From the NCBI RefSeq assembly GCF_054482525.1, contig NZ_CM137006.1: DNA of 64,000 nt. One strand, written 5' to 3'. Positions 8,836 to 10,380 of the stretch are shown here, piece by piece. Every line of letters begins with the position of its first letter. Positions within the stretch are counted from its first letter, which is position 1. The translations under genes were made by a program, and so were the position numbers. The notes under the pieces are model-generated. The model worked only from the letters and a program-made list of their open reading frames with translations. It searched no databases and was not told the origin of the DNA.

Positions 8836-8875
8836 GCCGGATACGGTGCACCTGTAGGCCTGATAAGACGCATCA
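8836..8875. repeat. REP palindromic unit, left half (split by IS insertion)
   Basis: gcctgataagacgcatca abuts the IS left end. Confidence 0.6.
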
Positions 8876-8907
8876 TGAACTGAACCCCAAAACCTGGACA
8901 GTTTCAG

Positions 8908-9630
8908 TTAACCGGCTTTTTGATGCTCAGTCCGGTATTCTACCGGACTGAGTCCCCCAAGACTGAGTTTTATTCTTTTTTGATTCCAGTAAGTTATGTA
9001 TTCGTTAACGGCATTTTCCAGCTCTTCTACATTTCTGTAGTCCCGGCGATAGTACATTTCTTCTTTCAGGTGACCAAAGAAGTTCTCCATTACCGCATTA
9101 TCAAGGCAGTTGCCCTTGCGCGACATGCTCTGCACTAACCCTCTGTCCGCCAGGGCGGACTGATAACTTTTTATCCGGTAATGCCATCCTTGATCACTGT
9201 GGAGCAGCGGTTTCTCCCCTTCAGCAAGGCTTTCCAGCCCCTTATTTAACATCCGCTTCACCAGCTCCTCTGTAGGCCTGCAGGCCGTTTCCCACGCCAC
9301 GATTTCCCCGTTAAACAAATCAAGTATCGGGGACAGGTACAGTTTTTGTCCGCCAGCCCTGAATTCGGTGATATCTGTCACCCATTTCTCACAGGGAGCT
9401 TCCGCTTTGAACTGCCGCTGAAGGATATTTTCTGCAGCGAGTCCCATATTTCCCCGGTAAGACCGGTATTTCTTCAGGCGCACAGGAGACTTCAGGCCGA
9501 GCTGTTGCATCAGTTTTCGCACCGTTTTGCCACTGAACTTAAGACCTCTTTTCTGAAGCTCACAATGGATCCGCCGGTACCCATAACATCCCCGGTGTTC
9601 ATGGAAGATGGAGGCTATGAGCTGTTTCAC
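8908..9630 (-). CDS. IS3-family transposase OrfB (integrase catalytic core; probably made as OrfAB frameshift fusion)
   Basis: 240 aa from first Met; rve-type DDE core sequence. Confidence 0.85.
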   Translation of the reverse strand: MKQLIASIFHEHRGCYGYRRIHCELQKRGLKFSGKTVRKLMQQLGLKSPVRLKKYRSYRGNMGLAAENILQRQFKAEAPCEKWVTDITEFRAGGQKLYLSPILDLFNGEIVAWETACRPTEELVKRMLNKGLESLAEGEKPLLHSDQGWHYRIKSYQSALADRGLVQSMSRKGNCLDNAVMENFFGHLKEEMYYRRDYRNVEELENAVNEYITYWNQKRIKLSLGGLSPVEYRTEHQKAG

Positions 9631-9734
9631 ATCAGCATACTTGTCCTTAGCCTTCTGCAGTGACAGCTGGTAGTACAGCGTGCTTCTGGCCAGCCCTGCA
9701 GCCTTTAACAGGTCAGACTGGCAGTGTCCGCACC

Positions 9735-10265
9735 TCAGGCTCCGGATGACTTTCGTTTTTTCTCCAGCTCCTGGCGCTTTTTTTCCAGGAGATGCTCCTG
9801 CATGGCTTTCAGATATGCATTTTCTGCGCGAAGATAACGCAGCTCATTCTTCATCTCTTCCGGCGTCATGTTTGCCTCGTTTTCATGGGTATCATCAGAA
9901 CGGGTCATGCTTTTCTCCTTCCTGCGCCTGATAAAGGCCTCATTACCAGATTTGCGGTAGCCTTTTATCCAGTTTTTAACCGTGTTGTGGCTGGGAATGT
10001 TAAACCGGGCAGCTACCCGGGGTAGAGACTCAGAATGCCCGAGAGCATAAAGAACCACGCAAAGTTTATCTTCAGGAGAATAGCTACGCTTGTGTCTGCA
10101 ATCCAGTGCCCGAGGACCGTGAAGAAGAAAAAGATTAATCCAGTGTGAGAGGCTGGTGTGAGAAAGTTGAAAGAGTTTTGCCGTAGAAATGATGCCTGCA
10201 TGACCAGCCAGGTAGTGATTTACAGCGGCAAGTTTTACTTCAAATGAATGTTTCATAAACTGCAC
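9735..10265 (-). CDS. IS3-family transposase OrfA (HTH plus leucine zipper)
   Basis: 176 aa; helix-turn-helix N-terminus and C-terminal heptad-repeat region. Confidence 0.8.
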   Translation of the reverse strand: MQFMKHSFEVKLAAVNHYLAGHAGIISTAKLFQLSHTSLSHWINLFLLHGPRALDCRHKRSYSPEDKLCVVLYALGHSESLPRVAARFNIPSHNTVKNWIKGYRKSGNEAFIRRRKEKSMTRSDDTHENEANMTPEEMKNELRYLRAENAYLKAMQEHLLEKKRQELEKKRKSSGA

Positions 10266-10307
10266 CTTCAGATGTCAGATTATGTCCAACATTTGGGGTG
10301 CAGTTCA

Positions 10308-10380
10308 TCAAGCGTCGCATCAGGCACTATGCTCAAATGCCGGATGCGGCGTAAACGCTTTATCCGGCATACACACACAT
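10308..10380. repeat. REP palindromic unit right half plus adjacent REP
   Basis: agcgtcgcatcaggc ... gccggatgcggcgtaaacgc. Confidence 0.6.

Follow-up and report, generated by a model that had tools for sequence, protein, structure and literature searches.

The DNA considered here, hereafter called the window, is a 64,000-nucleotide stretch that matches the reverse complement of positions 4,722,742–4,772,741 of Escherichia coli PCN033, with 4 mismatches in 50 kb, and accordingly stems from PCN033 or a very close relative. At one locus of the window, two intact genes, yjgA and mpl, converge on a spacer that holds an insertion sequence (IS) and, on both sides of it, the pieces of a REP cluster (BIME) built from palindromic units (PUs) (Table 1). 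The original prediction had described this arrangement as an IS1397-like element of 1432 bp in the center of a REP palindrome, and the intergenic position between convergent yjgA and mpl is as it said. The insertion point lies 68 bp past the yjgA stop codon and 88 bp past the mpl stop codon, so no gene is broken; mpl runs in the same direction as the transposase gene and lies upstream of it. The interval first assigned to the element, 8836–10380, is wider than the element, as it also takes in the REP cluster on either side. Elsewhere in the window, the PCN033 annotation, mapped to window coordinates, shows a TetR/AcrR-family pseudogene between yjfZ and ytfB that is interrupted at ∼39422–41568 by an IS200/IS605-type unit, which consists of a tnpA pseudogene and an intact TnpB/InsQ gene. 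The same annotation places a RelB/DinJ-RelE toxin–antitoxin pair at ∼5528–6050 (− strand) between cybC and nrdG.

Table 1. Features of the yjgA–mpl locus, in window coordinates.
Feature	Position	Strand	Basis
yjgA (ribosome biogenesis factor), left neighbor, intact	8257–8808	+	ORF; PCN033 RefSeq annotation
Partial PU arm GCCGGATACGGTG, left-edge remnant of REP cluster (BIME)	8836–8848		sequence
PU1 left half GTAGGCCTGATAAGACGCA (stem arm 8858–8871)	8854–8872		rejoins with 10311–10325 as hairpin
Target-site duplication TCA, left copy	8873–8875		single TCA in empty alleles
IS1397	8876–10307	− (transposase strand)	1432 bp; 100% identity to annotated copies; NF033516 387 bits
Right inverted repeat (IRR), orfB-side IS end	8876–8900		21/25 match to other end; repeat finder
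OrfAB transposase, 449 aa after −1 shift, 1349 nt including stop	8908–10256	−	reconstruction; same coordinates as WP_100190663.1
Catalytic D295 / D355 / E391 codons	9373–9375 / 9193–9195 / 9085–9087	−	OrfAB translation
orfA, 173 aa, helix-turn-helix DNA-binding protein	9735–10256 (including stop 9735–9737)	−	ORF; Pfam HTH_28, HTH_Tnp_1, HTH_29
A AAA AAG slippery heptamer, −1 programmed frameshift	9777–9783	−	in phase with orfA; PGAP joined CDS
Potential RNA hairpin, IRL tip with orfA Shine-Dalgarno/AUG	10252–10311	−	inverted repeat; fold −28.1 kcal/mol, z = −3.5
Left inverted repeat (IRL), orfA-side IS end	10283–10307		end comparison, repeat finder, pattern scan
Target-site duplication TCA, right copy	10308–10310		directly outside IS end
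PU1 right half AGCGTCGCATCAGGC	10311–10325		rejoined hairpin; empty-allele comparison
PU2, intact second palindromic unit of BIME, GCCGGATGCGGCGTAAACGCTTTATCCGGC	10339–10368		inverted repeat; occupied in EC28
mpl (murein peptide ligase), right neighbor, intact	10395–11768	−	ORF; RefSeq annotation

The predicted length of 1432 bp, the imperfect terminal inverted repeats starting with TGAACTG and the TCA on both flanks were all confirmed. The ends read TGAACTGAACCCCAAA on the + strand and TGAACTGCACCCCAAA on the − strand, and they form inverted repeats of 25 bp that match at 21 of 25 positions (TGAACTG[A/C]ACCCCAAA...). Termini of this kind, TGAACTG...CAGTTCA, belong to the TG...CA type and, together with the 3-bp TCA duplication, are those of the IS3 family. 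The end pattern occurs twice in the 64-kb window, versus 0.12 occurrences expected by chance, and the repeat finder additionally returns a 43-nt composite inverted repeat (8858–8900 with 10283–10325) in which palindrome arm, duplication and IS end run together. Among 20 other full copies of the element that were measured, 19 are also 1432 bp long, the exception (locus L008) being 1430 bp, and the window element agrees with the length published for IS1397, 1432 bp.

The coding capacity is also that of an IS3-family element. Two consecutive, partly overlapping frames are joined into OrfAB by a −1 shift at the in-phase A AAA AAG heptamer; RefSeq makes the same join in WP_100190663.1, where the programmed frameshift is annotated, and the RefSeq annotation of the matching PCN033 region carries the same joined CDS coordinates as our reconstruction. 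OrfAB matches the NCBIfam IS3-family model NF033516 over its full length (387 bits, cut-off 160) and contains the Pfam domains HTH_21, rve and rve_2, with rve covered from position 2 to 102 of 102 (E = 1.5e-21). An IS3-family transposase is recognized by its DDE (rve) domain, with D, D, 35, E spacing and a K or R seven residues after the E; OrfAB has such a domain, with a D-60-D-36-E triad composed of D295, D355 and E391, and K398 seven residues past the glutamate. In other words, neither orfA nor orfB is disrupted, and the ends of the element, the frameshift site and the DDE triad are likewise intact.

Is the element a copy of IS1397, or does it only look like one? IS1397 was reportedly described in natural isolates of E. 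coli by Bachellier, Clement, Wilde and colleagues between 1997 and 2003. When we searched 5,426 complete E. coli genomes with the 1432-bp element using megablast, many RefSeq copies proved to be 100% identical over all 1432 bp, and all identical copies among the matches listed bear the PGAP label 'IS3-like element IS1397 family transposase', with a programmed frameshift. Judged by the RefSeq/PGAP labels of these identical copies, the window element is IS1397 itself; the kinship first proposed is thus correct, and the qualifier 'like' was too cautious. That it could instead be a different IS3-family element, for example an ISKpn1-like or IS150-like one that merely resembles IS1397, can be put aside with near certainty. 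The ends alone are not diagnostic, as the 24-nt tip of the IRL is exactly common to distant relatives from Yersinia, Serratia and an Acholeplasmataceae metagenome-assembled genome (MAG), but those relatives share just 37–64% amino-acid identity, whereas identity to the copies that RefSeq names IS1397 is complete over the whole 1432 bp and recurs in many genomes. With IS1397 the window element shares the 1432-bp length, the TG...CA ends, the orfA/orfB organization with its A AAA AAG frameshift, the 3–4-bp duplication, the palindromic-unit loop target in BIMEs and an almost exclusively chromosomal location, and we see no difference of substance.

Copies covering at least 80% of IS1397 are present in 1707 of the 5426 E. 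coli genomes. In this genome search, IS1397 was placed on chromosomes 7605 times versus 7 times on plasmids, and a separate plasmid search returned 3 full copies only, in records of 0.7–4.9 Mb that resemble mislabelled chromosomes. Because the full copies from the plasmid search all sit in such chromosome-like records, the location of IS1397 is effectively chromosomal.

Two other elements invite comparison. ISKpn1, an IS3-family relative of IS1397 from Klebsiella pneumoniae, is a different element with a different type of host repeat, and we liken the two by description; according to a passage in PMC1525189, which cites Wilde et al. 2001 and 2003, ISKpn1 targets Klebsiella palindromic units, with the specificity residing in the transposase. 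IS621 of E. coli, a member of the IS110 family, resembles IS1397 in inserting specifically into E. coli REP sequences (PMC1525189, PMC3184786). Its transposase family is unrelated, it is without the IS3-type terminal inverted repeats of IS1397, and its insertion point is not in the loop but at the 3′ side of the REP, beyond the inverted repeat (PMC3184786).

What did the yjgA–mpl spacer look like before the insertion? When the element and one TCA are taken out, the flanks join as GCCTGATAAGACGC-ATCA-AGCGTCGCATCAGGC, which folds into a hairpin whose loop holds the duplicated bases; the 800-bp empty site reconstructed in this manner is found with 100% identity in strain WP4-S18-ESBL-07. The spacer of that strain and of a K-12-type O16:H48 strain reads ...GTAGGCCTGATAAGACGCATCAAGCGTCGCATCAGGCA..., with a second palindrome 11 nt on. 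When the joined flanks were used as the query, 80% or more of their length aligned in 5,409 of the 5,426 genomes. The comparison with the uninterrupted spacer thus supports the original prediction, in that the exact empty allele exists and the same palindrome occurs in a K-12-type strain. The rejoined PU1 and PU2 lie head to head, with 11 nt between them, and fit the REP type, i.e. an intergenic imperfect palindrome of ∼30–35 bp, GCC(G/T)GATGCG...CTTATC(A/C)GGC, in alternating orientation; seven more units of the same consensus bring the number in the window to nine. The left half of PU1 is identical to the uninterrupted unit at loci L002 and L003, and the partial arm at the left edge of the cluster resembles the left arm of PU2, the shorter spacer allele of strain ST3 joining that position directly to PU2.

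The predicted REP palindrome also emerges from an RNA-family comparison as well as from the hairpin fold. The uninterrupted spacer (positions 882–959 of loci L002 and L003) is a full-length, 77-nt match to the Rfam family naRNA4, a nucleoid-associated noncoding RNA and REP325-type BIME unit (RF02564), with scores of 79.8–86.2 bits versus a gathering score of 59.5; the interrupted spacer of the window scores 37.9 bits (10283–10369), below the threshold. IS1397 splits this two-hairpin REP/BIME unit at the loop of its hairpin 2, such that the yjgA side loses a hairpin and the mpl side keeps PU2. A second naRNA4-type BIME, which is intact, is found in the window at 16519–16595, between ytfQ and ytfR.

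We are highly confident that 8876–10307 is a complete, apparently functional IS1397 that transposed into the PU1 loop of a two-unit BIME and duplicated TCA in the process, and none of our observations speaks against this. The converse, that IS1397 is ancestral at this site and that the 'empty' alleles arose by precise excision, would require excision to leave a perfect single TCA, which would mimic an empty site; nothing specific supports such a history, and we give it next to no weight. The exact insertion is found in 3 of 5426 genomes, versus the 5409 that align to the empty-site query, and the empty site is carried both by K-12-type strains and by a strain with 100% identical flanks. IS3-family elements move by a copy-out/paste-in route and as a rule do not excise precisely. 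Additionally, the PCN033 copy of IS1397 at caiE–caiF is 100% identical to the one at yjgA–mpl, which indicates that transposition was recent.

Insertion of IS1397 at this locus is rare: the yjgA–mpl spacer is occupied in only 5 of the 5,426 complete genomes. The insertion in PU1 seen in the window is limited to PCN033, SCU-102 and 19KM1776 (3/5,426), strain EC28 carries IS1397 in PU2, with a GAAC duplication, and ST3 carries it in its shorter, single-palindrome spacer allele, with an imperfect duplication. These five occupied spacers go back to three separate insertion events, all of them in palindrome loops. For an unbiased view of target choice, we turned to nine hits from a search with the IS only, i.e. 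hits that were not chosen by their flanks, which represent eight distinct loci: trmL–cysE (two strains, same site), ygcQ–ygcP, trpR–yjjX, yggM–hemW, msrQ–zinT, a site adjoining rrf, znuB–ruvB and loiP–speB. With the IS taken out, every one of the eight forms a palindromic hairpin whose loop had held the IS; the 3–4-bp duplication is exact at seven of them and imperfect at trpR–yjjX (GAAC/CAAC). A second set of eight loci, composed of PCN033 caiE–caiF (from the IS-only search) and seven loci from a search that included flanks, gave the same picture, with a palindromic hairpin and the IS in its loop in 8/8 cases, and a 3–4-bp duplication wherever it could be read.

Palindrome-loop targeting was hence found at 18 independent sites beyond that in the window, and the preference for REP loops that the original prediction attributed to IS1397 holds at all of them as well as at the window site. 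Given that palindrome loops account for ∼0.07% of the sequence (9 units in the window), this pattern is not the product of chance. The IS has no fixed orientation and is found facing either way along the asymmetric palindrome; Y-type and Z2-type units each show a single orientation, in a sample that is small and partly biased. These observations are in keeping with passages of PMC1525189 and PMC3184786, according to which insertion of IS1397 is specific for E. coli REP sequences and the transposase determines this specificity.

There is also a regularity in the neighborhood of these insertions. At 15 of the 16 occupied intergenic sites with both neighbors annotated, the flanking genes are convergent by raw count. 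Taken with the fact that the yjgA–mpl BIME has been hit at least three times, this raises the speculative idea, to which we give little credence, that beyond recognizing sequence IS1397 may prefer palindromes that are extruded or strained by supercoiling between converging transcription units; if this were true, a map of IS1397 insertions would report local DNA topology. REPs themselves tend to lie between convergent genes, and selection against harmful insertions has been discussed in connection with this bias (PMC1525189); together, the REP bias and such selection probably explain most of the convergent pattern.

How would IS1397 have reached the PU1 loop, and can it leave again? OrfAB, produced by −1 ribosomal frameshifting, would excise a copy of the element as a circle with abutted ends (copy-out/paste-in), and the circle would integrate where OrfAB recognizes a palindromic unit, with OrfA modulating transposition; circle formation, integration and the role of OrfA are part of the general biology of the IS3 family. 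A promoter scan found no sigma-70-like promoter inside IS1397, a promoter/terminator scan of the element found no convincing terminator, and a search for a frameshift-stimulating structure 3′ of the slippery site gave a fold no better than that of shuffled sequences (z = −0.87). The hairpin predicted at the orfA start forms only in transcripts that enter from outside the element; read-through transcripts from mpl, for instance, would carry the IRL tip, which would pair with the orfA ribosome-binding site. Hiding the start site from outside transcription is a known strategy of insertion sequences, and the IRL-tip hairpin probably limits accidental expression of the transposase in this manner.

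The absence of a recognizable sigma-70 promoter in the element, and a hairpin that can mask the ribosome-binding site in read-through transcripts, are also what one might expect of a silent passenger, i.e. a copy that is intact in sequence yet no longer mobile. We regard this as unlikely, if not to the same degree as the alternatives weighed above. Neither the two frames nor the frameshift site, the DDE triad or the ends show any damage, the element recurs in identical form at several loci of the one genome and at many others from strain to strain, and a weak native promoter is normal for elements of the IS3 family. Judging from these sequence features, the IS1397 copy of the window is probably still mobile. 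A passage in PMC1525189 credits Clement et al. 1999 with showing transposition of IS1397 in E. coli K-12.

The claim that IS1397 is absent from K-12 stands for full-length copies but not for fragments. E. coli K-12 MG1655, BL21, MC1061 and ∼1,780 other genomes, all without a full IS1397, retain a 65-bp remnant of its orfB-side end, 95.4% identical to window positions 8876–8940. In MG1655 this remnant (L014 2481–2565) directly adjoins half a palindromic unit and is flanked by yhhJ on one side and, on the other, by yhhI, the ISEc1 transposase gene near RhsB; the rest of the MG1655 element has apparently been replaced by the ISEc1/RhsB region.

Outside of E. coli, a scan of species representatives with the IRL tip yielded mostly distant relatives and contaminants. 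The 24-nt tip, TGAACTGCACCCCAAATGTTGGAC, is exactly kept in IS3-family relatives from Yersinia aldovae, Serratia nevei and the Acholeplasmataceae MAG, each of which has a GGTGC a short way 5′ of its start codon that can base-pair with the GCACC of the tip. At three junctions of the Serratia nevei relative (L028, L030 and L031), the common motif (C/A)AGGGCGC stands 4–6 nt beyond the end of the IS, a hint of a repeated target sequence, with one flank seen at each junction since the contigs break inside the IS; a search for a REP-like palindrome around this relative found no full palindromes in the short loci examined. A Bacteroidetes MAG (L032 1374–1419) has IRL-like and IRR-like ends back to back, 6 nt apart, forming a 46-bp miniature element without coding sequence. 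Lastly, a 415-bp contig labelled Microbacterium sp. 18062 (L027) consists of an IS1397 end plus the palindrome flank of znuB–ruvB and is most likely E. coli contamination of that assembly.

In closing, what lies between yjgA and mpl is already known: a described element behaving as described, a textbook case and not a discovery, with little importance beyond correct annotation. It does illustrate cleanly, in a natural setting, how an insertion sequence spares genes by taking the intergenic palindromes of its host as safe landing sites. With carriers limited to 3 of 5,426 complete genomes, the PU1 insertion can usefully mark a lineage, and the probable mobility of IS1397 is relevant to genome plasticity in the pathogenic PCN033-type lineage of E. 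coli.
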